From positions 3,804 through 67,803 of the forward strand of contig JBMOMW010000057.1 of the NCBI GenBank assembly GCA_049325255.1: 64,000 nt of DNA. Direction: 5' to 3'. Shown here one piece after another: positions 2,148 to 57,431 of this stretch (position 1 is its first letter; each line of letters starts with the position of its first letter). The translations under genes and the position numbers were made by a program. This stretch comes from Pseudomonadota bacterium. GTDB lineage: Bacteria; Pseudomonadota; Alphaproteobacteria; UBA11222. The notes under the pieces are model-generated. The model did no database searches and was not told the DNA's origin. It was given only the letters and a program-made list of their open reading frames with translations.

Positions 2148-3071
2148 CTATGTGCCCATGGCGCGCATGGCGATGGCGGCGGCGGCAGTGCGGTTTTCAA
2201 CGCCAAGCTTTGGATAAATCTGTTCAAGATGCTTGTTCACGGTTCGCGGGCTCATTTTAAGAATCTCGCCGATATCGCGGTTTGATTTGCCGCGTGCGGT
2301 CCATATAAGCACTTCGGCTTCACGCAGGGTCAGCGACAATTTGTCCTGCAACACCCGTTCCTCCTTGCACGCAACATAATTGCTGACGCGCAGGAGTATT
2401 TCATGGTGACCGATTTCGCCATCATAGGAGAACTGTAACTGGGTTAATCCATGGCAGGAGATCAAAACCGGCGCGTTGTTTGCCACATCTGCATTATTGC
2501 ATTGCTGCAACCAGGATCGCACCATACCGGGCAATATAAAATTTCTAGTCCTGAAATCGGGAAACATTGCGCACATGAGTGCATTGGCCTGCGGCGTGCA
2601 CCATAGAATGCGGCCGGAATGATCCACCGCCAGATAATAGCGCCCCGAAGCATCCAGCGCTTCATAGGCCCTATGTGCAAGGCGCGCATTGGCAAGATGC
2701 GTCCGGATACGGGCGATCAATTCATCCGGTACGATGGGCTTTGCGACATAGTCGACACCGCCCGCCTCAAAGCCCATGACGATATGCGCCGTATCCGTCA
2801 ATCCGGTCATGAAAATGACCGGCACATGGGCCGCCGCTATCAGGCGCTTCAGCCGCCGGGTCGTCTCAAAACCATCCATCCCAGGCATGACCGCATCCAT
2901 GAGAATGATATCCGGGGTTACCTTTCCAATCGCGGCCAGGGCCTGATCCCCTTCGAGGGCCGCAAGAACGGTCAGACCCGCATCTTCCAGCACATCGGCA
3001 AGCATTGCGACAGTTTCGGTTGAATCGTCCACAACGAGCACAGTGTCGCGCGCGGATCTAATGGGAATCAT
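2148..3071 (-). CDS. response regulator: N-terminal receiver, atypical ~130-aa middle domain, C-terminal LuxR/FixJ-type HTH
   Basis: REC motifs VLVVDDS and DIILMDAVMPGMDG. C-terminal LTLREAEVLIWTARGKSNRDIGEILKMSPRTVNKHLEQIY is a LuxR-type HTH. ATG at 3071 (MIPIRS) overlaps the upstream kinase stop by 14 nt. Confidence 0.8.
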   Translation of the reverse strand: MIPIRSARDTVLVVDDSTETVAMLADVLEDAGLTVLAALEGDQALAAIGKVTPDIILMDAVMPGMDGFETTRRLKRLIAAAHVPVIFMTGLTDTAHIVMGFEAGGVDYVAKPIVPDELIARIRTHLANARLAHRAYEALDASGRYYLAVDHSGRILWCTPQANALMCAMFPDFRTRNFILPGMVRSWLQQCNNADVANNAPVLISCHGLTQLQFSYDGEIGHHEILLRVSNYVACKEERVLQDKLSLTLREAEVLIWTARGKSNRDIGEILKMSPRTVNKHLEQIYPKLGVENRTAAAAIAMRAMGT

Positions 3072-6000
3072 GTGATTGCACCTTCTCGATTGCTGCAATG
3101 AACCGCTTGAAATCATATGTCGCGGCGATCTGACGCATCTGCGCTACGAATGGTCCGTTGCCGGGGGAGCTGTTTTCAATATCGTCTAGTTTGGCCTGAA
3201 TGCCACGCACATGGCCGATCTGGCCCAGATGCAGCAGCTCCTCAATATGAGGTTCAGATGGTGGTATGATAAGGCAGTTTTGCCCGTTCGCCTCTCCGCC
3301 CACGCTGTCCGATTCATATGTCCATTCCAGTTTCAGAAGCGCCTGGGTTTTATCCAGCAGCGAATTGATTTTCATTGGCTTGATCAGACAGTCATCATGC
3401 GCGCGATCCGGCGCAAGGGTCTGGTGTGTCTCGTTGATATTTGCGGAGAGAATAATGATTGCGGGCTTGTCGAGACCCATAGCCCGCAGTCTGCGCGCCA
3501 CCTCCCAACCGTCCATGCCAGGCATCAACACGTCCAGCAGGATCAGGTCAGGATCGCATTCCTGCGCCAGCGTAATGCAGGCAGGGCCATCCGGCGCATG
3601 CAATACTGTAAATCCAAGCGGCGCGAGCGTCTCGTGGATAAGGTCACGATGGACAGGGTTATCATCTGCGGCAATCACCGTCCTGTGAGGCCCGTGATAC
3701 CCGGTGATGCGTTTTTCCCGCGCGATGGCGGCGCGCGGCCGGATGACTTCCGATAACATCAGCCTGACACGGAAGATGCTGCCTTTGCCCACTATGCTGG
3801 TCACGCTGATCTCGCCGCCCATGGTTTCGGTCAGCACCCGCGCAATGGTAAGGCCAAGGCCGGTTCCAGCGGGAACCTTGATTTCCTCGGGCCCGTGCAC
3901 GCGCTGGAAGGGTTCGAAAATCCGGTCAATATCCTGCGCACGGATGCCAATGCCGGTATCCTCGATTTCAAATACCGCAACCTGGTTGCGGTAAGTCACG
4001 CGCAGCGCGACATGGCCGGCGCCTGTAAACTTGATGGCGTTTGACAGCAGGTTGATCAGAATTTGACGCAGCCGGTTTTCATCCGTATGGACCACCACCG
4101 GTATCTGGTCCGCCACTTCATAGTGGAACGCAATACCTTTAGCGGTTGTCTGTAAACGGAACATATCGACAAGCTGATCCAGAAATTCAATGATACGCAC
4201 TTCTTCGTGGTTGAGTTGAAAACGTCCCGCCTCGATCTTGGAAATATCGAGCAGGCCGTCAATCAGCACCGAAAGATGCTCGGCACTGCGCCGCACGACC
4301 TTGATAGCGTCCACACGCCGCGCCGGAATGGCTTTGTCGCGTTCAAGCAGTTGGGCGTAACCCAGAATCGCATTGAGCGGCGTGCGAAGTTCGTGACTAA
4401 GGCCCACGACATACCGGCTTTTAGCTTCATTCGCCGCCTCGGCCACTTCTTTCGCCCGCTGCAATTTGGCGTCCGTGATCTTGTGCGCCTCGATCTCCTC
4501 AAACAGAAGATTATTCTGACGCAGCGACTCCTCTTCCGCCACATGACGGCTTTCCTTCGCCAGCACGTACAACCAGACGGCGACACAATTAATCAAAGAC
4601 ATGACCAGGAACACGGCCCCCAGAATTGACTGGAACAGCGCCGTGTCCGCATCCGCATCAACCGTCGCCTGCAGATAGACCAGCATCAGTCCGGCGCCCA
4701 GCACGAGCGTGACCATGAAAAACACGCGCAGATAATTGCCCACCCGCGAATTGAGCGGCTTCCTGATCCATTGCGGCAGCGCCATTTCCAAGCCGCTCAA
4801 TAGCTGGCCGCCATGGAGCGCGTCCTGTTTGCATACATCATGACAGCGGGCGTCCAGCGAACAGCACAGGGAACATATCGGCCCCGAATAAGCGGGACAC
4901 ATCGCCATATCTTCCGGCTCGAACTTATGCTCACAGATGCAGCACTTGATGGACGCTTTACCGCGCCAGGCAAGATGCGGTCCGCGCGCAATGTAAAACC
5001 GCCCCCGGGTTAACACTGCAATGACCGGTGATGACACAAAGGCCACGCCAAGTGCTACATAGGAAGCCAGCGCCTGGGACACATCTCCAAACAGATTGAG
5101 GTGGGCGGCAAAACCCGCAGCGACCGCCAATATCATCGCGCCGACGCCAACAGGATTGATGTCATAGAGATGCGCGCGTTTGAATTCGATAAAAGGCGGG
5201 CTAAGGCCCATCGGCTTATTGACAACCAGATCGGCGACAAGCGCGCCTATCCAGGCGATGGCGACAATCGAATACAGCCCGAGTATTTTCTCCAGCGCCC
5301 GGAAAATGCCAATTTCCATCAGCACCAGGGCAATCGCCACATTGAACACCAGCCACACAACCCGGCCGGGATGGGTATGGGTCAGCCGCGAAAAGAAATT
5401 CGACCAGGCCAGCGATCCCGCATAGGCATTGGTCACATTGATCTTGATCTGCGACAGGACAACAAAGATGCCGGTAAAGCCGAGCGCCAGTTCAGGCGAA
5501 GAGAACACATATTCAAATGCGATCAGGTACATTTGCGTCGGTTCCGCCGCGCGTTCCAGTGGCACAAAGTTCTGGACCGCGAGGGCGGCAAGAAACGATC
5601 CGCCCAGTAATTTGAGCACCCCGGGCACGATCCAGCCCGGACCTGCGGCGACCAAACCCGTCCACCAGCCCAGGCGCTGTTTGCGGTTACGTGGCAGAAA
5701 ACGTAAAAAGTCAACCTGTTCGCCGATCTGAGCGATCAGCGCAAAGGCGACAGATGAAGCTGCGCCAAACAGGACTATGTTGAAATTTCCGTCCGTGTTC
5801 TGAGAGCCAGAAAAATTTGTCCAGTCATCAAATTTGCCCGCGCCATGCGCCGGAATGAAAACAAAGGGCAGCAGTTGCAGCAATATCCAGAGCGGCTGTG
5901 TCCATAATTGCAGCCGGCTGATGAAGGTGATGCCATGCGTCACCAGCGGGATTATCACAATGGCGCTGATAATATATCCAAGCGCCAGCGGCACGCCAAA

Positions 6001-6567
6001 GCACAGCTCCAGAGCCAGCGACATGATCGCCGCCTCAATGGCGAAGAAAAGAAACGTGAAGGACGCATATATCAGCGATGTTATGGTGGATCCGATATAG
6101 CCAAATCCCGCGCCGCGCGTCAGCAGGTCGATATCGACACCATATTTGGCCGCGTAAAAAGCAACCGGTAATCCAGTGGCAAAGATAATCACGCTTACCA
6201 CAAGAATGGCGGCGGCGGCATTGGTGAACCCATAATTGAGCGTAATGGCGCCGCCAATAGCTTCCAGCGCAAGAAACGAGATCGCGCCCAGGGCTGCATT
6301 GGTGACACGGAAGTTTGACCATTTTCGCGCATTTTTCGCGGTAAAACGCAGCGCGTAATCTTCCAGGGTCTGGTTGGCGACCCATTTATTATAATTACGT
6401 CGTACACGGATGATTTTCAGCCGCGCCATCATGGCCAATAGCCTTTGTTCAAACCACGCTCCGCCATCCCAGCGATAATGACAGCTTAACGCTATCATTG
6501 TGCGACGCACAAGATTCAATTTGCATCGCAACATAAATCTGGGCGCGCGCACCGGATAAACCGCCAT
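3058..6567 (-). CDS. hybrid sensor histidine kinase with N-terminal NCS1 (purine-cytosine/hydantoin permease)-like 12-TM domain, Cys-rich segment, HisKA, HATPase, one receiver and a possible C-terminal Hpt-like tail
   Basis: 1169 aa. N-terminal 550 aa are polytopic membrane sequence with NCS1-like motifs (FRVTNAALGAISF..., GFGYIGS). Then CCICEHKF...CPAYSGPICSLCCSLDARCHDVC, two TM helices and a coiled coil. LSHELRTPLN is the HisKA H-box, followed by the G-boxes DTGIGI and GTGLGL, and REC with LILLDVLMPGMDG. Likely true start is MMARLK at about 6432. Confidence 0.85.
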   Translation of the reverse strand: MAVYPVRAPRFMLRCKLNLVRRTMIALSCHYRWDGGAWFEQRLLAMMARLKIIRVRRNYNKWVANQTLEDYALRFTAKNARKWSNFRVTNAALGAISFLALEAIGGAITLNYGFTNAAAAILVVSVIIFATGLPVAFYAAKYGVDIDLLTRGAGFGYIGSTITSLIYASFTFLFFAIEAAIMSLALELCFGVPLALGYIISAIVIIPLVTHGITFISRLQLWTQPLWILLQLLPFVFIPAHGAGKFDDWTNFSGSQNTDGNFNIVLFGAASSVAFALIAQIGEQVDFLRFLPRNRKQRLGWWTGLVAAGPGWIVPGVLKLLGGSFLAALAVQNFVPLERAAEPTQMYLIAFEYVFSSPELALGFTGIFVVLSQIKINVTNAYAGSLAWSNFFSRLTHTHPGRVVWLVFNVAIALVLMEIGIFRALEKILGLYSIVAIAWIGALVADLVVNKPMGLSPPFIEFKRAHLYDINPVGVGAMILAVAAGFAAHLNLFGDVSQALASYVALGVAFVSSPVIAVLTRGRFYIARGPHLAWRGKASIKCCICEHKFEPEDMAMCPAYSGPICSLCCSLDARCHDVCKQDALHGGQLLSGLEMALPQWIRKPLNSRVGNYLRVFFMVTLVLGAGLMLVYLQATVDADADTALFQSILGAVFLVMSLINCVAVWLYVLAKESRHVAEEESLRQNNLLFEEIEAHKITDAKLQRAKEVAEAANEAKSRYVVGLSHELRTPLNAILGYAQLLERDKAIPARRVDAIKVVRRSAEHLSVLIDGLLDISKIEAGRFQLNHEEVRIIEFLDQLVDMFRLQTTAKGIAFHYEVADQIPVVVHTDENRLRQILINLLSNAIKFTGAGHVALRVTYRNQVAVFEIEDTGIGIRAQDIDRIFEPFQRVHGPEEIKVPAGTGLGLTIARVLTETMGGEISVTSIVGKGSIFRVRLMLSEVIRPRAAIAREKRITGYHGPHRTVIAADDNPVHRDLIHETLAPLGFTVLHAPDGPACITLAQECDPDLILLDVLMPGMDGWEVARRLRAMGLDKPAIIILSANINETHQTLAPDRAHDDCLIKPMKINSLLDKTQALLKLEWTYESDSVGGEANGQNCLIIPPSEPHIEELLHLGQIGHVRGIQAKLDDIENSSPGNGPFVAQMRQIAATYDFKRFIAAIEKVQSHDSH

Positions 6568-6822
6568 CCCCTATATTTTGCAGACGAGCCATAAGGATGG
6601 CCAATATAAATCAGCCTCAAAAAAATGGCACTCTGTGGCCATAAAATAAGCAGCCGATGACGAAAATATAAGCAGCGGTCTCTGCCTCTCTCCATGGCGC
6701 GGCGCGATTGTTTTTTGCATATACGTCAAACGACGTATTGCTGCGTTGCAATATGTCTGGCGATTGTTGACGCCATGGATCGCGATAGTGCGACTCCGCC
6801 GTTGGATTTTAGGAGGCGTCAA
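6568..6822. promoter_or_regulatory. divergent promoter region between the sensor kinase and urtA, with inverted repeats that are candidate operators
   Basis: Contains ATACGTC-aaac-GACGTAT (perfect 7-bp arms) and ATTGC-N6-GCAAT inverted repeats, plus an AGGAGG RBS 6 nt upstream of the urtA ATG. Confidence 0.4.
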
Positions 6823-8094
6823 ATGTCATCTGATAACAAGAAACCCGGGGGCTGGGATTTTCAATCACCCACACGCCGGCAATTGCTAATCGGCACGGCG
6901 GCGCTTGGCGCCGCAGCAATGCTGCCGCGTGGCGCCTGGGCGCAGGCATTCCCGACCAGTGCGGTCAATACAACCGGACTTGCGGTCACCGATACCGAGG
7001 TGACAGTTGGCATTCTGCATTCCGTCACCGGGACCATGGCGATTTCCGAAACCGGTTCGGTGCAGGCCGAGAAACTGGCCATTGCACAAATAAATGCAGC
7101 AGGCGGCGTGCTGGGCCGCCAGATCAAATTCATCCAGGAGGACGGCGCCAGCGACTGGCCGACCTTTGCTGAAAAGGCCAAAAAGCTACTTGTTAAAGAC
7201 AAATGCGCTTCGGTAATGGGCTGCTGGACATCGGCGTCGCGCAAGGCGGTGCTGCCGGTGTTCGAACAATATAATGGCATGCTGTATTACCCGACCTTCT
7301 ATGAAGGTCTGGAGCAATCCAAGAACGTTATCTATACCGGTCAGGAAGCAACACAGCAGATCATCGCCGGGCTGGACTGGGTGGTGAAGGAAAAGGGCGC
7401 CAAGAGTTTCTATCTGCTGGGATCGGACTATATCTGGCCGCGCACATCGAACAAGATCGCGCGCAAGCACATTGAGAACTTTCTCAAGCTGAAAGTGGTG
7501 GGCGAGGAATATTTCCCGCTTGGGCATACGCAGTTCAACTCCGTTATCAATAAATTGAAACTGACCAAGCCAGACGTGATTTACGCAATCATTGTGGGCG
7601 GCTCGAACGTGGCGTTCTACAAACAGCTTAAAGCCGCAGGCATTGATTTGACCAAGCAGACACTGGTCACAATCTCGGTGACCGAAGATGAAATTCTGGG
7701 TATTGGCGGCGAAAATATCGTTGGCGCCTATGCCTGCATGAAATATTTCCAGTCGCTCGACAATCCCAACAACAAGACCTTTGTCTCCGAATTCAAAAAG
7801 ATGTGGGGCGCAGAAACGGTTATTGGCGACGTCACGCAGGCCGCCTATCTCGGTCCCTGGCTGTGGAAACTGACGGTGGAGAAAGCAGGCTCCTTTGATG
7901 TCGATAAGGTGGCGGCGGCATCACCGGGCATTGAATTCAAGGGCGCGCCCGAGGGTTATGTGCGCATCCACGAAAACCACCATTTATGGAGCAAGACCCG
8001 CGTCGGCCTCGCGCGCCTCGATGGCCAGTATGACGTTGTGTATGAAACGGCTGACCTGATGGAGCCAAATCCCTTTCCCAAGGGCTATCAATGA
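6823..8094 (+). CDS. urtA: urea/short-chain amide ABC transporter substrate-binding protein (UrtA/FmdD), Tat signal
   Basis: Twin-arginine motif RRQLLIGTAALGAAA. Strong similarity to the UrtA/amide-urea binding protein family. Operon context with urtBCDE and fmdA. AGGAGG RBS at 6811-6816. Confidence 0.85.
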   Translation: MSSDNKKPGGWDFQSPTRRQLLIGTAALGAAAMLPRGAWAQAFPTSAVNTTGLAVTDTEVTVGILHSVTGTMAISETGSVQAEKLAIAQINAAGGVLGRQIKFIQEDGASDWPTFAEKAKKLLVKDKCASVMGCWTSASRKAVLPVFEQYNGMLYYPTFYEGLEQSKNVIYTGQEATQQIIAGLDWVVKEKGAKSFYLLGSDYIWPRTSNKIARKHIENFLKLKVVGEEYFPLGHTQFNSVINKLKLTKPDVIYAIIVGGSNVAFYKQLKAAGIDLTKQTLVTISVTEDEILGIGGENIVGAYACMKYFQSLDNPNNKTFVSEFKKMWGAETVIGDVTQAAYLGPWLWKLTVEKAGSFDVDKVAAASPGIEFKGAPEGYVRIHENHHLWSKTRVGLARLDGQYDVVYETADLMEPNPFPKGYQ

Positions 8095-8192
8095 TCTTTC
8101 AGTCATGTCCGGGCGGCGCGCCGCCCGGACGGTAAGGTTCAGCAGTCAATTTGGCAGCCCGCCATATACGGCCACCTGTAGGGAGTAACACG

Positions 8193-9119
8193 ATGTTCAT
8201 GGAGTATTCGCTTGGTGATCTCGGCTCGATTTTTGCGATGCAGGCATTTGCGGGACTGATACTTTTCTCCGTGTACCTCTTAATGGCGCTGGGTCTTGCA
8301 ATCATCTTTGGCCAGATGAACGTCATCAACATGGCGCATGGCGAGTTCATGATCCTCGGCGCCTATATGACATATTTGTGCTCGCACCTGTTTCAGAGCT
8401 ATGCGCCCGGCCTGTATGACGGTTACTTCTTTGTGGCCATGACCGTGGCCTTCATTGTTTCAGGCGGGATGGGGCTGATTGTGGAGTGGCTGCTGATCCG
8501 GCGCCTCTATTCCCGCCCGCTGGATACGCTGCTGGCGACCTGGGGCCTCAGCCTGATCATGCAGCAGACTTTCCGTTCCGTCTTTGGCGCGCGCGAAGTG
8601 GGTGTTGAATTGCCGGCCTGGATGATGGGCTCGCTGCCGGTGACCGGTTCCATCGAAGTGCAGATCAATGGACTGTTCGTCATGGCGCTGACGCTTTTCA
8701 TAACCGGGCTTGTGGCGCTATTGATGCTCCGTTCCCGCTGGGGCCTGCAGGTGCGCGCGGTGCTGTCAAACCGCGTCATGGCGGGCGCTGCCGGCGTCAA
8801 CACACAGCGCGTTGACCGGCTTACCTTCGGGCTTGGCTGCGGCATAGCCGGGATCGCGGGTTCGGCTTTCACCATGATCGGCTCCACCGGCCCGACGGCT
8901 GGTCAGCTTTACATTGTTGACACGTTCCTCGTCGTTGTCTTTGGCGGCGCGCAGAGCCTGCTGGGAACCGTATTTTCGGCACTCTCCATCTCACAGTCGC
9001 AGTCCGTCATGGAGTTCTTCATGTCGGGCTCGATGGCCAAGGTGATCACGCTGCTGTTTGTCATCGGCCTTTTGATGCTGCGCCCGCAGGGCCTGTTTGT
9101 CCTCAAGATTAGAAAGTAA
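8193..9119 (+). CDS. urtB: urea ABC transporter permease UrtB
   Basis: Branched-chain-amino-acid-type permease fold (LivH-like), multiple TM segments, operon position. Confidence 0.85.
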   Translation: MFMEYSLGDLGSIFAMQAFAGLILFSVYLLMALGLAIIFGQMNVINMAHGEFMILGAYMTYLCSHLFQSYAPGLYDGYFFVAMTVAFIVSGGMGLIVEWLLIRRLYSRPLDTLLATWGLSLIMQQTFRSVFGAREVGVELPAWMMGSLPVTGSIEVQINGLFVMALTLFITGLVALLMLRSRWGLQVRAVLSNRVMAGAAGVNTQRVDRLTFGLGCGIAGIAGSAFTMIGSTGPTAGQLYIVDTFLVVVFGGAQSLLGTVFSALSISQSQSVMEFFMSGSMAKVITLLFVIGLLMLRPQGLFVLKIRK

Positions 9120-9125
9120 CGCATC

Positions 9126-10244
9126 ATGTATGACGTCCTTAGAAGAAATCGAAATCTGGAACTGCTGGGCATCATCCTTATCGGCATTCTGATCCTGGTG
9201 GTGCTGCCGCTGGCGCTGGATATTTTCCGGCTTAACCTTGTCGGAAAATATCTCACTTACGCCTTTGTTGCGGTGGGGCTTGTGCTGTGCTGGGGTCATA
9301 CGGCCATCCTGAGCCTTGGGCAGGGGGTGTTCTTCGGCCTTGGCGGCTATTGCATGGCCATGTATCTGAAACTTGAAGCCTCCACGCCCGAGGCCACCAA
9401 AATTCAGTCGACGCCGGGTATTCCCGACTTCATGGACTGGAATCAGTTAACCGAACTTCCTCATTTCTGGGTGCCGTTCCAGTCTTTGCCGCTGGCACTG
9501 ATCGCCGTGTTTGCGGTGCCTGTGCTGATCGCCTTTATCCTTGGCTATGCGCTGTTCAAGCGCCGTGTGGGCGGCGTTTACTTTGCCATCATCACCCAGG
9601 CGCTGGCGGCGGTGCTGACCATTCTGATCATTGGGCGGCAGGATTTTACCGGGGGCATCAATGGCATCACGGACTTGCGCACGCTTCTGGGCTGGGACAT
9701 CCGCACGGACAGCGCCAAATATATTCTCTATTTCGTCTGCTGCTTTGCACTGCTTGGCAGCATACTGCTGGCGCGTCTGGTGATCGCCAGCAAGCTGGGG
9801 CGCATCCTGATCGCAGTGCGCGACAAGGAGGAACGGGTGCGTTTCTCCGGCTATGACCCCGCTTTATTCAAGGTTTTCGTATTCTGTTTCGCGGCTGCTG
9901 TCGCGGCGCTTGGCGGCGCGATGTTTACCTTGCAGGTCGGGTTCATGTCGCCGTCTTTCGTTGGCATCGTGCCCTCCATCGAGATGGTGATTTTCTGCGC
10001 CGTGGGCGGGCGTCACTCGATGGTCGGCGCAGTCACCGGCACCCTGTTGGTGAATTGGGGCAAGACGGTTTTTTCAGAAAGCTTCCCCGAACTGTGGCTG
10101 TTCGCCATGGGGGGGCTGTTTATCGCCGTCGTTCTGGCGTTTCCGCGCGGGCTGGCGGGGCTTTTCACCGATCAGTTGCTGCCGCTGATCAACCGCAAGC
10201 TAAGCGGCAAGCACACCGGCGTCACGCCCGTGCTGGCCGAGTAA
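9126..10244 (+). CDS. urtC: urea ABC transporter permease UrtC
   Basis: LivM-like permease, polytopic, follows urtB after a 6-nt gap. Confidence 0.85.
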   Translation: MYDVLRRNRNLELLGIILIGILILVVLPLALDIFRLNLVGKYLTYAFVAVGLVLCWGHTAILSLGQGVFFGLGGYCMAMYLKLEASTPEATKIQSTPGIPDFMDWNQLTELPHFWVPFQSLPLALIAVFAVPVLIAFILGYALFKRRVGGVYFAIITQALAAVLTILIIGRQDFTGGINGITDLRTLLGWDIRTDSAKYILYFVCCFALLGSILLARLVIASKLGRILIAVRDKEERVRFSGYDPALFKVFVFCFAAAVAALGGAMFTLQVGFMSPSFVGIVPSIEMVIFCAVGGRHSMVGAVTGTLLVNWGKTVFSESFPELWLFAMGGLFIAVVLAFPRGLAGLFTDQLLPLINRKLSGKHTGVTPVLAE

Positions 10245-10254
10245 GGAGAGCAAG

Positions 10255-11001
10255 ATGGCCAACAGAACTGATTTCCTTTTGGCGCTGGAAAATGTCAGCG
10301 TCTCCTTCGATGGCTTCAAGGCGGTCAACGAACTTAACCTCTATATCGACAAGGGCGAGCTGCGGGTCATTATCGGCCCCAATGGCGCGGGCAAAACAAC
10401 GGTGCTTGATCTTATCTGCGGCCGTACCAGGCCAAGCAGCGGTTCCATCAAATTCAACGACAGGGAAATCACCAAACTCAATGAGCAGGATATTGTGCAG
10501 TTGGGTATTGGACGCAAGTTCCAGACGCCTTCGATCTATGAAGACCTGACTGTATTCGAAAATCTCGAAATATCCTTTCCGCGCGGCCGCAATGTTTTCG
10601 GCGCGCTGTTCTGGAAACGCACCAGCGAGATTACCGATCAGGTGCACGCGATCGCCCGCATGATTTTTCTGGAAAAACTTCTGGATAGCCCCGCCGAAAT
10701 GCTGAGCCACGGCCAGAAGCAGTGGCTTGAGATTGGCATGCTGCTGATCCAGGACCCGGAATTGCTGATGCTGGATGAACCGGTCGCGGGCATGAGCGTG
10801 GCGGAGCGCGCAAAGACTGCTGAGTTGCTGAATGAGGTCATCAAGAACCGCTCGGTGATTGTAATCGAACACGACATGAAATTTGTCGAGAGCATTGCCC
10901 ACCGCGTCACTGTGCTGCACCAGGGCAAGGTGCTGGCCGAAGGCAGAATGGAAGCGATACAGGAAAACCCGGAAGTCAAGGAAGTCTATCTCGGCCACTA
11001 A
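10255..11001 (+). CDS. urtD: urea ABC transporter ATP-binding protein UrtD
   Basis: Walker A GPNGAGKTT, ABC signature LSHGQKQWLEIG, Walker B LLMLDEP. Confidence 0.85.
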   Translation: MANRTDFLLALENVSVSFDGFKAVNELNLYIDKGELRVIIGPNGAGKTTVLDLICGRTRPSSGSIKFNDREITKLNEQDIVQLGIGRKFQTPSIYEDLTVFENLEISFPRGRNVFGALFWKRTSEITDQVHAIARMIFLEKLLDSPAEMLSHGQKQWLEIGMLLIQDPELLMLDEPVAGMSVAERAKTAELLNEVIKNRSVIVIEHDMKFVESIAHRVTVLHQGKVLAEGRMEAIQENPEVKEVYLGH

Positions 11002-11012
11002 AGGAAACGGTC

Positions 11013-11702
11013 ATGCTTGAAGTGCGAAACCTTAATGTTGCCTACGGCCAGAGCCAGGTGCTGCATGGCCTTGATTTCACGGTCCAGCCGGGGGAAATTG
11101 TTGCGGTGGTTGGCCGTAACGGCATGGGAAAAACCACCTTGATGAAATCCCTGATCGGCGTCGTCCCGGTAAAAACCGGCGAGATCATCGCCAATGGCGC
11201 CAATGTCACCGCCATGCCCAGCCACGCGCGGGTCGCTAATGGTTTGGCCTATGTGCCGCAGGGACGCCAGATTTTTGGCGCCATGACGGTGGAGGAAAAT
11301 ATCAGGACAGGTCTTTCCGCCACCGGCAGGCGCGTCATACCGGACGAAATCTACAGCCTGTTTCCCATCCTGTGGGAATTCAACAAACGGCGCGGCGGCA
11401 ATCTGTCCGGCGGTCAGCAGCAACAGCTTGCCATCGCGCGCGCGCTGGCAAGCGACCCGAAAGTTCTGCTGCTTGATGAACCCACCGAGGGCATACAGCC
11501 TTCGATCATCAAGGATCTCGCCAAGGTGCTCAAGGAAATCCGCGATATGCGCAATCTGTGCATCATCGTCAGCGAGCAGGTGCTCAGCTTTGTGCTTAGC
11601 GTCGCGGACCGCATTCTGGTTCTGGAAAATGGGCGCATCGTACATAGCGATGTGCGTGAAGGTGTCGATGAGGCGGCCATCGCCCGCTTCCTCGCTGTGT
11701 AA
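11013..11702 (+). CDS. urtE: urea ABC transporter ATP-binding protein UrtE
   Basis: Walker A GRNGMGKTT, signature LSGGQQQQLAIARAL, Walker B LLLDEP. Confidence 0.85.
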   Translation: MLEVRNLNVAYGQSQVLHGLDFTVQPGEIVAVVGRNGMGKTTLMKSLIGVVPVKTGEIIANGANVTAMPSHARVANGLAYVPQGRQIFGAMTVEENIRTGLSATGRRVIPDEIYSLFPILWEFNKRRGGNLSGGQQQQLAIARALASDPKVLLLDEPTEGIQPSIIKDLAKVLKEIRDMRNLCIIVSEQVLSFVLSVADRILVLENGRIVHSDVREGVDEAAIARFLAV

Positions 11703-11740
11703 GGCCATGTGCAACACAAACAAATGGAAGGAGCATCACA

Positions 11741-12970
11741 ATGCCTGAGACCCTGATCAAAGTTGATCTGGCAGATTCCCCCTACAACAACGACATGATC
11801 CATAACCGCTGGCATCCGGATATTCCAATGGTGACATGGGTGAAGCGGGGCGCCGATTTCATTATCGAAACCTATGACTGGACCGGCGGTTTCATCAAGA
11901 ATAATGATAGCGCCGATGATGTCCGCGATATTGATCTGTCGATCGTGCACTTCCTGTCTGGCCCGATTGGCGTTGAAGGAGCTGAACCGGGCGATCTTCT
12001 GGTCGTCGATCTGCTGGATGTCGGCGCCAAGCCGGATAGCCTGTGGGGCTTCAACGGTTTCTTCTCAAAAAAGAATGGCGGCGGCTTTCTGACCGACCAT
12101 TTTCCGTTCGCGCAAAAATCCATCTGGGATATTTCGGGCCTCTATACCCATTCGCGGCATGTGCCCGGCGTTAAATTTGCCGGGCTGATCCATCCGGGCC
12201 TGATTGGCTGTCTGCCGGATCAAAAGCTGCTGGAAATCTGGAACAAGCGCGAAGTGGATTTCATCGCCACCCAGCCCGAGCGGGTGCCGCCGCTGGCCAA
12301 CCCGCCGTTCGGTCCCACCGCCCATGCGGGCAGGGCCAAAGACGCCGCCAAGGCCAAGGTGGCGGCGGAAGGCGCGCGCACAGTGCCGCCGCGCGAGCAT
12401 GGCGGCAATTGCGACATCAAGGATCTGTCGCGCGGCTCAAAGATTTATTTCCCGGTTTATGTCAAGGGCGGCGGACTTTCGATGGGCGATCTGCATTTCA
12501 GTCAGGGGGATGGCGAAATCACTTTCTGCGGCGCCATTGAAATGGCGGGCTGGCTGCATATCAAGGTGGATGTCATCAAGGACGGCATGGCGAAGTACGG
12601 TGTTAAAAACCCGATGTTCAAGCCTTCGCCGATTACGCCGAACTATAATAACTATCTCATCTTCGAGGGTATCTCGGTTGATGAATGGGGCAAGCAGCAT
12701 TATCTCGACGTGCATGTCGCCTACCGGCAGGCCTGCCTGAATGCCATCGAATATATGACCAAGTTTGGTTACTCCAGGGCCCAGGCCTACGCCATTCTTG
12801 GCACCGCGCCGGTGCAGGGGCATATTTCCGGCGTCGTGGATATTCCCAATGCCTGCGCGACGCTGTGGCTGCCAACGGATATTTTTGAATTCGACATCAT
12901 GCCGAACGCCGATGGCCCGGTAAAATATATCAAGGGCGGGGTGGATATTCCAATGTCGCCGGATAAATAA
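11741..12970 (+). CDS. fmdA: formamidase (acetamidase/formamidase family)
   Basis: N-terminus KVDLADSPYNNDMIHNRWHPDIPMVTWVKRGADFIIETYDWTGGFIKNND closely matches characterised FmdA formamidases. 409 aa. Confidence 0.9.
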   Translation: MPETLIKVDLADSPYNNDMIHNRWHPDIPMVTWVKRGADFIIETYDWTGGFIKNNDSADDVRDIDLSIVHFLSGPIGVEGAEPGDLLVVDLLDVGAKPDSLWGFNGFFSKKNGGGFLTDHFPFAQKSIWDISGLYTHSRHVPGVKFAGLIHPGLIGCLPDQKLLEIWNKREVDFIATQPERVPPLANPPFGPTAHAGRAKDAAKAKVAAEGARTVPPREHGGNCDIKDLSRGSKIYFPVYVKGGGLSMGDLHFSQGDGEITFCGAIEMAGWLHIKVDVIKDGMAKYGVKNPMFKPSPITPNYNNYLIFEGISVDEWGKQHYLDVHVAYRQACLNAIEYMTKFGYSRAQAYAILGTAPVQGHISGVVDIPNACATLWLPTDIFEFDIMPNADGPVKYIKGGVDIPMSPDK

Positions 12971-13041
12971 TCTTTTGCGGGTACGGGGCGGCGCCATGCT
13001 GCCCCGTGCGTTCCTCCATCAACAAAACCGGGACGGCAATC

Positions 13042-13377
13042 ATGCCAGTTTACGATTATCTCTGCGACGTCTGCGGCCCGTTTACGGCAATGCGCCCCAT
13101 GGCGGAATATGAAACGCCGCAAACGTGCCCGGAATGCAGCGCGGATGCGCCCCGGTCACTCTCGGTTCCGCATTTCGCCAATATGGCGACGGAACGCCGC
13201 CATGCTTTTTCTACGAACGAGCGCAGCGCCCATGCGCCGCAATCCTCCGCCGAATACAAATCACGGCATGGCGCAAACTGTTCGTGTTGCACGGGGAAGG
13301 GCTCACGCCTTACCGCGCGCGCCAAAGATGGATCAAAGAGTTTCCCGGCCAGCCGCCCCTGGATGATCTCGCACTAG
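13042..13377 (+). CDS. fmdB: FmdB-family zinc-ribbon putative regulatory protein
   Basis: MPVYDYLCDVCGPF...CPECS has the CxxC...CxxC arrangement of FmdB proteins. Sits immediately downstream of fmdA. Confidence 0.7.
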   Translation: MPVYDYLCDVCGPFTAMRPMAEYETPQTCPECSADAPRSLSVPHFANMATERRHAFSTNERSAHAPQSSAEYKSRHGANCSCCTGKGSRLTARAKDGSKSFPASRPWMISH

Positions 13378-13665
13378 AATCCACTTCACATGAAGTCGAA
13401 GCGGAAAATCTTTACCGCGTCCTTTTCCGGGCCGTCATCTTTTATTCAACAAGCCCCCGCGCCAGCCGGCTTTGGCCGGCATGCGTAATGCCAAGCGCGA
13501 ATTTCAGCCCCACGGAGCATAGCCGTTCCGTTCTCTCGTACCCACGCTGTCTGGACCGCTGGAAGTTAGAGTTTTCAGCTTTTTATCGCCGCACCCGCGA
13601 TGACGAGTGCAAGCAGGATGCGCGGCAGTATTGTTGTCAGTGTCATTTGGTTGCCTCCTGCTGGC

Positions 13666-14098
13666 CTAGGGCCTGCCGTCAGTTAAGCCAGATTGTAACA
13701 GAAGCCAGGTAGGTTGCTGCGAGAAAATTGCGCGCGGTTTTGTCATAACGGGTGGCCCCCGGGACCAGCCAAGGCTGGCCCGAGGACAGGCTATGGCCCG
13801 GAATTGCTTGAGTTTGCAAAAGAAGTTCTCGATCAGGTGGCGTGATTTGTAGATGTCCCTGTCATACTCGCGGCTTGACCTTACGAGTGCGTTTTGGCGG
13901 GATGATGACTGTCTTTCCCGCTTGCGTGAGCGGCAAAATGACACGCTCATCCGCATCATAGCCTTTATCAGCAATCACTGTCTGCGCTTCGACAAGAGGC
14001 AAAAGAACATCAGCCCCATCCAGATCACAGGCCTGCCAGGGGGTAAGATCAAAACATGTGTCACTTATCAGTGGAAATTTATGCCCCTCCCGGTGCAA
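13666..14098 (-). mobile_element. IS5-family (IS427-group-like) transposase remnant, 5'-truncated and frameshifted
   Basis: Two overlapping minus-strand ORFs carry ADKGYDADE...IPPKRTRK and YDRDIYKSRHLIENFFCKLKQFRAIA, which are DDE_Tnp_1 C-terminal motifs. The N-terminal HTH region is absent because the fnr paralog stop codon (14126) abuts the remnant. Confidence 0.6.
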
Positions 14099-14125
14099 AT
14101 CAACAGTCAGCGCCCAGGAAGAAAT

Positions 14126-14881
14126 TTAAGTTCCGTGGCCCGGGATTTTTCCCAGCTTTTCATGCAACGCTTGGTGTGTCCCGCATTCTTCGGAGACCGA
14201 GCATTCGTTGCACGCGAAATTACCGGTCTTTCGCATATCCTTGATGGTAACACGCGCGCCGTCGACCGTAATACCCTGATCGCGCAATGTTTGCAGGGTG
14301 CGTGAGAAAGTTTCTTTTTCCATGTGCAGGCGCGAGGCTATCAAGGCTTTGGTATAAGGCAATTCAAACCCGCGCGGATCAAGATTGTACAGCACACAAA
14401 GTTTTTGCAGATAGCAGGCCACCATTTGGGCAGCGGACATGGCCGTAAGATGTTCTACGTCTACCTGCGCGCTATGCAGCCGGTCAGCGATGCCGGCCAG
14501 TAATTTTTCCGCGATATGATCGAAATCTTTGAAGTGCTTCCGCATCCAGGCAATGGGAATTTCAAGCAGCGAACAATCTTCGACCGCGCGCGCATTCATG
14601 GCATGCTCAGCCTGCCCGGCAACGACCTCATCGGCGTTAATGGAATCCCCTGCAATCAGGATATCATTGGTGACCTCACGCCCGCCCGGGGTCTCCCGGA
14701 AAATTTGCATGGCGCCCCGGCAGATCACGTAAAAATGCGTGACTTTATCTCCGTGCATAAACAGGAACTGTCCGCGGGTACAGCTAATTATCCGGCTGTT
14801 GCGGACGAGAATGGCGCCATCATCCAGCGAAAGATCTGAAAACAGAGGAAGCGCCCTGAGTGTATCCAGTGCGGCGGTCAT
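14126..14881 (-). CDS. Crp/Fnr-family transcriptional regulator (paralog 1) with C-terminal CxxC-x5-C-x2-H extension
   Basis: cNMP-binding-like domain plus an HTH with the E--SR recognition motif (ETFSRTLQTLRD) seen in FNR-type TTGAT-box binders. No N-terminal FNR Cys cluster. Instead ends in FACNECSVSEECGTH. About 80% identical to the ORF at 36558-37313. Confidence 0.85.
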   Translation of the reverse strand: MTAALDTLRALPLFSDLSLDDGAILVRNSRIISCTRGQFLFMHGDKVTHFYVICRGAMQIFRETPGGREVTNDILIAGDSINADEVVAGQAEHAMNARAVEDCSLLEIPIAWMRKHFKDFDHIAEKLLAGIADRLHSAQVDVEHLTAMSAAQMVACYLQKLCVLYNLDPRGFELPYTKALIASRLHMEKETFSRTLQTLRDQGITVDGARVTIKDMRKTGNFACNECSVSEECGTHQALHEKLGKIPGHGT

Positions 14882-52432: not shown

Positions 52433-52508
<76 letters not shown>

Positions 52509-55513: not shown

Positions 55514-55590
55514 GCCGCCGTAGCTCAGTTGGTTAGAGCGCTTGATTGTGGATCAAGAGGCCCCTGGTTCGAATCCAGGCGGTGGTACCA
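55514..55590 (+). tRNA. tRNA-His (anticodon GTG), no encoded G-1 partner, A73, encoded CCA
   Basis: Manual fold gives acceptor GCCGCCG, D-arm GCUC-AGUUGGUUA-GAGC, anticodon stem CUUGA/UCAAG with loop UUGUGGA, T-arm CCUGG-UUCGAAU-CCAGG, then A-CCA. Confidence 0.85.

Positions 55591-57356: not shown

Positions 57357-57431
<75 letters not shown>

Follow-up and report, generated by a model that had tools for sequence, protein, structure and literature searches.

Sensor kinases built on a transporter fold ('transceptors') are rare, and to our knowledge only the SLC5/STAC group, which includes CbrA and CrbS, has been studied; how a transporter fold communicates with a kinase is still an open question. 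In the SLC5/STAC kinases CbrA, CrbS and RpuS, a small cytoplasmic domain, STAC, follows the last transmembrane (TM) helix of a LeuT-fold sensor and precedes the kinase. In the cryo-electron microscopy structure of CbrA, STAC is seen docked beneath the SLC5 core, which has the LeuT fold, and the authors propose that it couples transporter motions to the kinase (PMC13022988). Here we describe a cysteine-rich module which occupies a similar position in a hybrid sensor histidine kinase of a different build. The kinase is encoded in a stretch of 64,000 nucleotides, referred to below as the window, from a bacterium of the Pseudomonadota (Alphaproteobacteria, UBA11222; assembly GCA_049325255.1, contig JBMOMW010000057.1, positions 3,804 to 67,803 of the forward strand). 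The segment had been singled out in a first-pass annotation as a Cys-rich insert between the permease-like and kinase parts of the sensor.

The likeness to STAC, which by analogy would make that domain the best functional counterpart of the Cys module, is one of position. STAC is a metal-free four-helix bundle that follows an SLC5 rather than an NCS1 domain and leads straight into PAS/DHp (dimerisation and histidine phosphotransfer) domains, whereas the Cys module is separated from the kinase by an extra TM hairpin. The two share no sequence or fold relationship, the module being a predicted Cys-rich beta/helix structure. The NCS1 transporters Mhp1, CodB and PucI (TC 2.A.39) resemble the sensor domain in their 12-TM fold, but their chains stop at TM12, without a Cys module, an additional TM hairpin or a kinase.

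Position and conservation of the module

The kinase corresponds to a minus-strand open reading frame (ORF) at 3058..6567, listed and translated as 1169 aa. The Cys-rich peptide KCCICEHKFEPEDMAMCPAYSGPICSLCCSLDARCHDVCK, which begins KCCICEHK and ends CHDVCK, is present in it as aa 541-580, encoded at 4828..4947 on the minus strand. The first-pass annotation had placed it at 4940-5060 without stating the strand. These coordinates are about 112 nt too high, and the interval encodes aa 503-543, that is, TM12, a basic linker and the first two Cys only. It had also counted 11 Cys and 2 His in 40 residues; the length and the His count are right, while the number of Cys is nine. These nine are more than half of the 17 Cys in the whole protein, and the hypergeometric probability of such clustering is 5e-10 for one 40-aa window and ~6e-7 when corrected for all windows.

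Eight of the cysteines (C542, C545, C557, C565, C568, C569, C575 and C579) show no variation across an alignment of 15 homologues (56-67% identity), and define the pattern C-x2-C-x11-C-x7-C-x2-C-C-x5-C-x3-C. C543, H547 and H576 vary across homologues; among cluster representatives the position of H547 holds N 47, H 28 and R 25, and the commonest residues at H576 are H, G, R and N. Since both His positions are variable, the ligand set would be the eight Cys. The pattern initially proposed, CC-x-C-x-H ... C-H-x2-C, was therefore overstated as regards both His and the second Cys of its 'CC'.

The strict motif is whole in 116 of the 120 best database homologues, and the four exceptions comprise two frameshifts, one deletion and a single Cys-to-Phe change. 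A profile of the module was searched against 1.84 billion cluster representatives (50%-identity clusters) and matched 381 proteins at E<=1e-3. Among the best 150 of these 381, the strict motif is complete in 132. The remaining 18 comprise 17 fragments, which either start within the motif or have a frameshift in it, and one sequence that was not inspected. Relatives are encoded on at least 599 matching stretches of a one-genome-per-species collection, and in 80 species loci (GTDB), which are contigs from this collection and span Alpha-, Beta- and Gammaproteobacteria, the motif is whole without exception. Absence of the Cys pattern from homologues, which had been named at the outset among the findings that would refute the proposal, is thus decisively contradicted by both the species loci and the cluster representatives.

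Conservation extends beyond the cysteines. D553, P558, Y560, I564, S566, L567, L571, R574, D577 and K580 are nearly invariant, and the Cys557-Pro pair is retained in 126 of 131 sequences. The mean column conservation is 0.75 for the module, 0.67 for the TM core and 0.45 (aa 521-541) and 0.39 for the two flanks, so that the module forms an island of conservation between poorly conserved neighbours. On the basis of conservation and a structural model of aa 534-588 generated with AlphaFold2 (AF2), we delimit the eight-Cys module as aa 542-580 (39 residues; 4828..4944, minus strand). It is preceded by a variable K/R-rich linker after TM12 (aa 521-541; 4945..5007, minus strand) and followed by a poorly conserved stretch with predicted short helices that leads to TM13 (aa 581-608; 4744..4827, minus strand). 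With eight of its nine Cys invariant across the family, the segment is not a product of chance.

Architecture and topology of the sensor kinase

The N-terminal part of the kinase is a 12-TM transporter-like sensor domain with a predicted NCS1 fold (aa 46-520; 5008..6432, minus strand), as delimited from AF2, Foldseek and hydropathy. An AF2 model of aa 46-700 (655 residues), built with 56 sequences, reached a predicted TM-score (pTM) of 0.79. A Foldseek search of the PDB with this model placed CodB (7qoa; E 6e-9, TMt 0.77) and Mhp1 (2jln; E 7e-9) at the top, with SLC5, APC and Nramp members ranking below them. This bears out the earlier reading of the region as NCS1- or permease-like, at the level of fold: the model indicates a highly divergent NCS1 fold. 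Pfam reports nothing within aa 1-700 and NCBIfam has no model for the domain; NCS1 membership by sequence (PF02133, Transp_cyt_pur) gave no Pfam match at E<=10, and phmmer found nothing in the PDB. The label 'purine-cytosine permease-like' for this domain comes from source annotations only. The kinase also falls outside the SLC5/STAC group, as its best fold matches are NCS1 proteins, with SLC5 lower, and a Pfam match to STAC is absent.

C-terminal to the module lie a TM13-TM14 hairpin (aa 609-664; 4576..4743, minus strand), assigned by hydropathy and charge count and seen as long helices in AF2, and the signalling domains. These are a HisKA (DHp) domain with an SHELR H-box at aa 724-728 (aa 716-781; 4225..4422, minus strand; PF00512, E 4.5e-16), a HATPase_c domain (aa 828-938; 3754..4086, minus strand; PF02518, E 5e-27) and a receiver domain (aa 964-1073; 3349..3678, minus strand; PF00072, E 2e-19). 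All three score far above the Pfam cut-off, and the protein is accordingly a hybrid histidine kinase. Its C-terminal tail (aa 1100-1169; window 3061-3270, minus strand) carries, in several homologues as well, a motif L-x-LG-x-IGH-x-[RK]-G that resembles the HxxKG of histidine phosphotransfer (HPt) domains, and may be a built-in phosphotransfer domain. Pfam and NCBIfam have no model for the tail after the receiver, and in one homologue the His is replaced by Tyr.

At the other end of the gene, translation probably does not start from the ATG listed at 6567. M46 at 6432 is likelier, because its position in the alignment is where every homologue begins. The protein would then be ~1124 aa long, the interval from 6433 to 6567 (minus strand) would be untranslated, and the intergenic region to the divergent gene urtA would measure ~260 bp.

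Hydropathy analysis gave about 12 TM segments, an 88-residue loop (aa 521-608) that contains the module, TM13 at aa 609-631 and TM14 at aa 648-664. Together with the AF2 model, this agrees with the initial placement of the Cys-rich segment after the last transporter-like helix and before two further TM helices. The loop carries 12 K+R, and the short acidic outer loop between TM13 and TM14 (aa 632-647) has zero K/R. Since two TM helices separate the module from the kinase, it lies on the kinase's side of the membrane, and since twelve separate it from the K/R-rich N-terminus, it lies on that side too. The TM count and the K/R distribution thus answer the question, raised with the first-pass annotation, of whether the module is cytoplasmic or periplasmic: it is cytoplasmic.

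Three other explanations can be weighed at this point: that the Cys-rich stretch arose by chance, that it is a disulfide knot in the periplasm, or that it is a c-type haem site (CxxCH). The string 'CCICEH' does look superficially like CxxCH, but its His is not next to the second Cys and is not conserved. A disulfide knot is at odds with the cytoplasmic topology, and chance with the corrected P value and with the invariance of the pattern throughout the family. We consider all three excluded, with at most a vanishing probability left to them jointly.

The architecture is fixed. In every full-length carrier inspected the order is NCS1-like domain, module, two TM helices and HisKA/HATPase, to which a PAS domain or a second receiver is sometimes added. 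Carriers that seemed short or devoid of a kinase proved to be gene calls with frameshifts or truncations, and among the best 150 of the 381 profile matches no other architecture containing the module was seen.

Predicted fold and candidate metal sites

No Pfam or NCBIfam model covers the module, and aa 527-600 (74 residues) have no Pfam match at E<=10. The opinion that such an insert is not a standard part of NCS1 transporters or of histidine kinases is in keeping with this result; it is a dense, non-standard Cys module. An AF2 run on aa 534-588 with 78 diverse module sequences gave a mean pLDDT (predicted local distance difference test) of 81.8, with 10-residue blocks over model residues 11-40 averaging 88-92. 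In the predicted order, a CxxC knuckle (C542, C545) is followed by a beta-hairpin with strands running up to C557 and C565, then by a helix that begins at C568-C569 (CxxCC) and by a second helix that begins at C579. Judged from the model, this is the layout of treble-clef, cross-brace type two-zinc fingers. A Foldseek search of the PDB returned zinc fingers for nearly all of the top-50 neighbours, mostly two-zinc cross-brace folds (RING, PHD, FYVE, LIM, ZZ, RBR), with TMq 0.45-0.55 and root-mean-square deviations of 1.4-3 A over 31-45 columns; the best E was 0.6 and none was significant.

The cross-brace fingers (RING, PHD, FYVE, B-box, LIM, ZZ) are like the module in their length (~40 residues) and in their eight metal ligands, which in the module are putative, and share with its predicted structure the CxxC knuckle, the beta-hairpin and a helix that starts at the second CxxC. 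The comparison was made with the generally known consensus patterns of RING, PHD, FYVE and B-box fingers, from which the module deviates by its CC dyad, its single third ligand and the lack of any conserved His. Such fingers are mostly eukaryotic, whereas the module is a loop of a bacterial inner-membrane kinase. In the cross-brace assignment that we favour, Zn1 would be bound by the C542/C545 knuckle with C565/C568, and Zn2 by C557, C569, C575 and C579.

The zinc ribbon put forward in the first-pass annotation does not fit. A ribbon holds one zinc with four ligands, on two CxxC knuckles borne by two beta-hairpins, but here eight Cys are invariant and the second knuckle opens a helix in the AF2 model, as in treble-clef folds. 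None of the zinc-ribbon models in Pfam hits the module, yet one of them (PF09723) matches the FmdB-type protein encoded nearby. A search of the PDB with the module profile found no relative, only spurious matches to the 'CxxC' knuckles of C2H2 fingers.

The same annotation had considered an iron-sulphur (Fe-S) or redox-sensitive module that could gate signalling, and the ligand set invites the idea that the eight Cys bind one or more Fe-S clusters or form a redox-reactive Zn(Cys)4 switch, through which the output would integrate redox state, O2 or nitric oxide (NO) with amide or urea. All ligands are Cys, with no conserved His, and the C-x2-C-x5-C spacing known from FNR and WhiB-like proteins is approached by C565-x2-C568 and C569-x5-C575. 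The retention of Cys557-Pro could be read in the same way, the cytoplasmic location allows Fe-S assembly, and no sequence or structure match forces zinc. The Fe-S sensors FNR, WhiB-like proteins and NreB are likewise cytoplasmic, with clustered Cys of C-x2-C-x5-C-like spacing. They differ, however, in using four Cys per cluster, in their folds and in serving redox or anaerobic regulons, whereas the module, with its eight Cys, is predicted to fold like a zinc finger and stands in a neighbourhood of genes for nitrogen scavenging. A search of the module pattern for the spacings CxxCxxCxxxCP, CxxxCxxC and Rieske found none, so that canonical ferredoxin and radical-SAM spacings are absent. The knuckle-hairpin-helix topology of zinc fingers is predicted with good confidence, the structural neighbours are zinc fingers and the neighbouring genes have no redox theme. 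Moreover, the family is abundant in obligate aerobes (Alcanivorax, Marinobacter, Bradyrhizobium, Pseudomonas), in which an exposed O2-labile cluster would be a liability. We therefore regard an Fe-S or redox site as unlikely, and nothing in the present evidence favours it, or a gating of the signal, over a structural zinc site. Slightly less probable again is the more ambitious proposal of a redox, Fe-S or metal-occupancy switch within a transceptor, which would combine external urea or formamide with internal redox or metal inputs; the module would then found a family of bacterial cross-brace fingers with a ligand spacing of its own.

We conclude that the module, conserved and of a non-standard kind, is probably metal-binding. 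It represents an undescribed domain family of a familiar type, a predicted small Cys-ligated metal finger, in an unusual setting.

Proposed role in coupling sensor to kinase

Our preferred explanation is that the module is a small autonomous cytoplasmic domain, in which two structural Zn(II) are bound by the eight Cys in the cross-brace (RING/PHD/FYVE-like) manner, and that it couples the sensor to the kinase; we would give this explanation as a whole about an even chance. The module is the only covalent link between the 12-TM ligand-binding domain of predicted NCS1 fold and the TM13-TM14 hairpin, the coiled coil and the DHp domain that follow. A small amide (urea and/or formamide) would bind the transporter-like domain and shift its inward/outward conformation. 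The rigid zinc module, docked under conserved cytoplasmic loops of the NCS1-like domain, would report this shift, which would then pass to the bundle of TM13-14 and coiled coil and set the activity of the kinase. A phosphorelay would finally activate the response regulator encoded next to the kinase, which has a receiver (REC) and a LuxR-type domain and would control the divergent urtABCDE-fmdAB operon, both described below. Outside the membrane, the most conserved blocks are cytoplasmic loops 2-3 (aa 143-157) and 8-9 (aa 379-402), on which the module, conserved to the same degree, could plausibly dock; loop 10-11 (aa 450-471), also cytoplasmic, is conserved as well.

Several observations weigh against this explanation. 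The structural matches to zinc fingers lack statistical significance, the ligand spacing agrees with that of no named family of zinc fingers and the zinc-finger hidden Markov models are silent. The case for zinc depends on ligand spacing, fold prediction and cytoplasmic placement, and Fe-S ligand motifs are likewise called to mind by the C-x2-C...C-x5-C arrangement and the invariant Cys-Pro. The module has a pLDDT of only 60-79 in the 655-residue sensor model, for which no inter-domain contacts are reported, and docking onto the transporter face is consequently proposed purely by analogy. The signal molecule and the regulatory target, for their part, are deduced from gene neighbourhood.

A role of the module in dimerisation would account for some of the same facts. 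Two zinc modules would pair and so unite the TM13-14 hairpins and the DHp helices, the NCS1 domains being monomeric. Histidine kinases act as dimers, the module stands immediately before two elements that have to pair, the TM hairpin and the coiled coil, and many cross-brace fingers (e.g. RINGs) homodimerise. The coiled coil and the DHp domain, however, already provide a dimer interface. No observation separates dimerisation from the coupling model, with which it is compatible, and as an explanation of the module we think it improbable.

Gene neighbourhood and candidate regulatory target

The cognate response regulator is encoded at 2148..3116 on the minus strand and comprises, by Pfam, a REC domain (aa 26-138) and a LuxR/GerE helix-turn-helix (HTH) domain (aa 261-316). 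The ~120 aa between them (aa 139-260) match no family. Its ORF overlaps the 3' end of the kinase gene by 59 nt, and the true start is probably later. A REC-LuxR regulator was detected in 78 of the 80 related loci, and lies directly downstream of the kinase gene in nearly all.

Divergent from the kinase are the genes of an ABC transporter, urtABCDE (6694..11702, plus strand), identified by NCBIfam models TIGR03407 to TIGR03411 above cut-off. Of the 80 related loci, 76 have a detected UrtA, nearly always with urtABC divergent, upstream and adjacent. The transporter genes are followed by fmdA (11741..12970, plus strand), which encodes formamidase (NF045496, 763 bits), and by a gene for an fmdB-type zinc-ribbon protein (MPVYDYLCDVCG...CPECS; 13042..13377, plus strand; PF09723, 40.1 bits against a cut-off of 34.4). 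After urtE, fmdA is found in 56/80 loci and fmdB in 54/80, and most of the other loci are contigs that end early. The order urtABCDE-fmdA-fmdB, at 6694-13377 (plus strand) in the window, is thus recurrent (54-56/80 loci), which suggests that the transporter serves formamide or short amides besides, or instead of, urea.

A subgroup from Rhizobium, Sinorhizobium and Ciceribacter (loci L055, L064, L065, L068, L070, L072-L074 and L076) has the same kinase-regulator pair with a different UrtA. The latter is 40% identical, yet scores 552 bits against TIGR03407, and represents a second type of bona fide urtABCDE. The Rhizobium/Sinorhizobium loci also have a long UrtB of 539 aa and no fmdAB, and their Cys motif is unchanged. 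In L068 an IS630 transposase lies beyond urtE.

The tight linkage to urtABCDE, and the frequent one to fmdB, raises the question of whether the module mainly docks another molecule. Candidates would be the UrtDE ATPases or UrtBC permeases, through which it could sense flux, FmdB, a PII-type protein, or anionic lipids as in FYVE and C1 domains. Nearly all surface positions of the module are conserved, beyond the ligands and the core, as is typical of an interaction surface, and its nearest structural neighbours, RING, PHD, FYVE and LIM, bind proteins or lipids. The Rhizobium/Sinorhizobium subgroup, which lacks FmdB and FmdA but keeps the motif, shows that FmdB is no universal partner. The surface conservation is explained equally well by docking on the protein's own cytoplasmic loops, which are as conserved as the module. 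We give a separate docking partner the same small chance as an Fe-S or redox site, and retain coupling by a structural zinc module as the preferred explanation.

From its neighbourhood, the kinase-regulator pair very probably regulates this operon for uptake and hydrolysis of urea and short amides, and the ligand of the kinase is probably urea and/or formamide. The substrates of NCS1 transporters (hydantoins, cytosine, allantoin) are ureide-type compounds, chemically related to urea and amides. Upstream of urtA, within 6595-6645 (plus strand), the sequence TGGCAC-N5-GGCC at 6626-6640 is sigma-54-like. There are two copies of TGGCCAAT, at ~6432-6439 and at ~6599-6606, and a search of the urtA-kinase intergenic region for an inverted-repeat operator found none.

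A literature search yielded no paper that characterises the kinase family, nor any description of an NCS1-type kinase for urea or amides; a Dechloromonas kinase adjoining UrtA appears only as an entry in a published table. No link to this family could be established for 'HK05741' of Pseudomonas, which is found close to urea genes; it is probably RetS.

Other features of the window

Between fmdB and the next gene, short ORFs on the minus strand at 13660-14100 resemble pieces of an IS5-type transposase (e.g. ...ADKGYDADE...), and this interval is probably a decayed insertion sequence. At 14126-14881 (minus strand) a regulator of the Crp/Fnr family is encoded, with a weak match to FtrB/Fnr models. 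Its Cys cluster (FACNECSVSEEC) lies, unusually, at the C-terminal end rather than at the N-terminal one as in FNR. Downstream of the response regulator gene, at 1328-2080 on the minus strand, lies a gene for an LpxR-like outer-membrane protein (PF09982, E 5e-61). Three tRNA genes were identified with Rfam, at 52436-52508 (minus strand), 55514-55587 (plus strand) and 57360-57431 (minus strand).

Significance

The combination of an NCS1 fold, a predicted metal finger and an extra TM hairpin would be a second, independent solution to the problem of linking a transporter fold to a kinase. The family, present in at least 600 sequenced species, stands beside urea/formamide nitrogen-scavenging genes in hundreds of Proteobacteria, and we found neither a paper on it nor a curated family model. 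Its eight invariant Cys offer a precise, mutable handle on the coupling step. If the kinase is the true inducer-sensor of the urt-fmd operon, it would explain how urea and short amides are detected in many soil and marine Proteobacteria.

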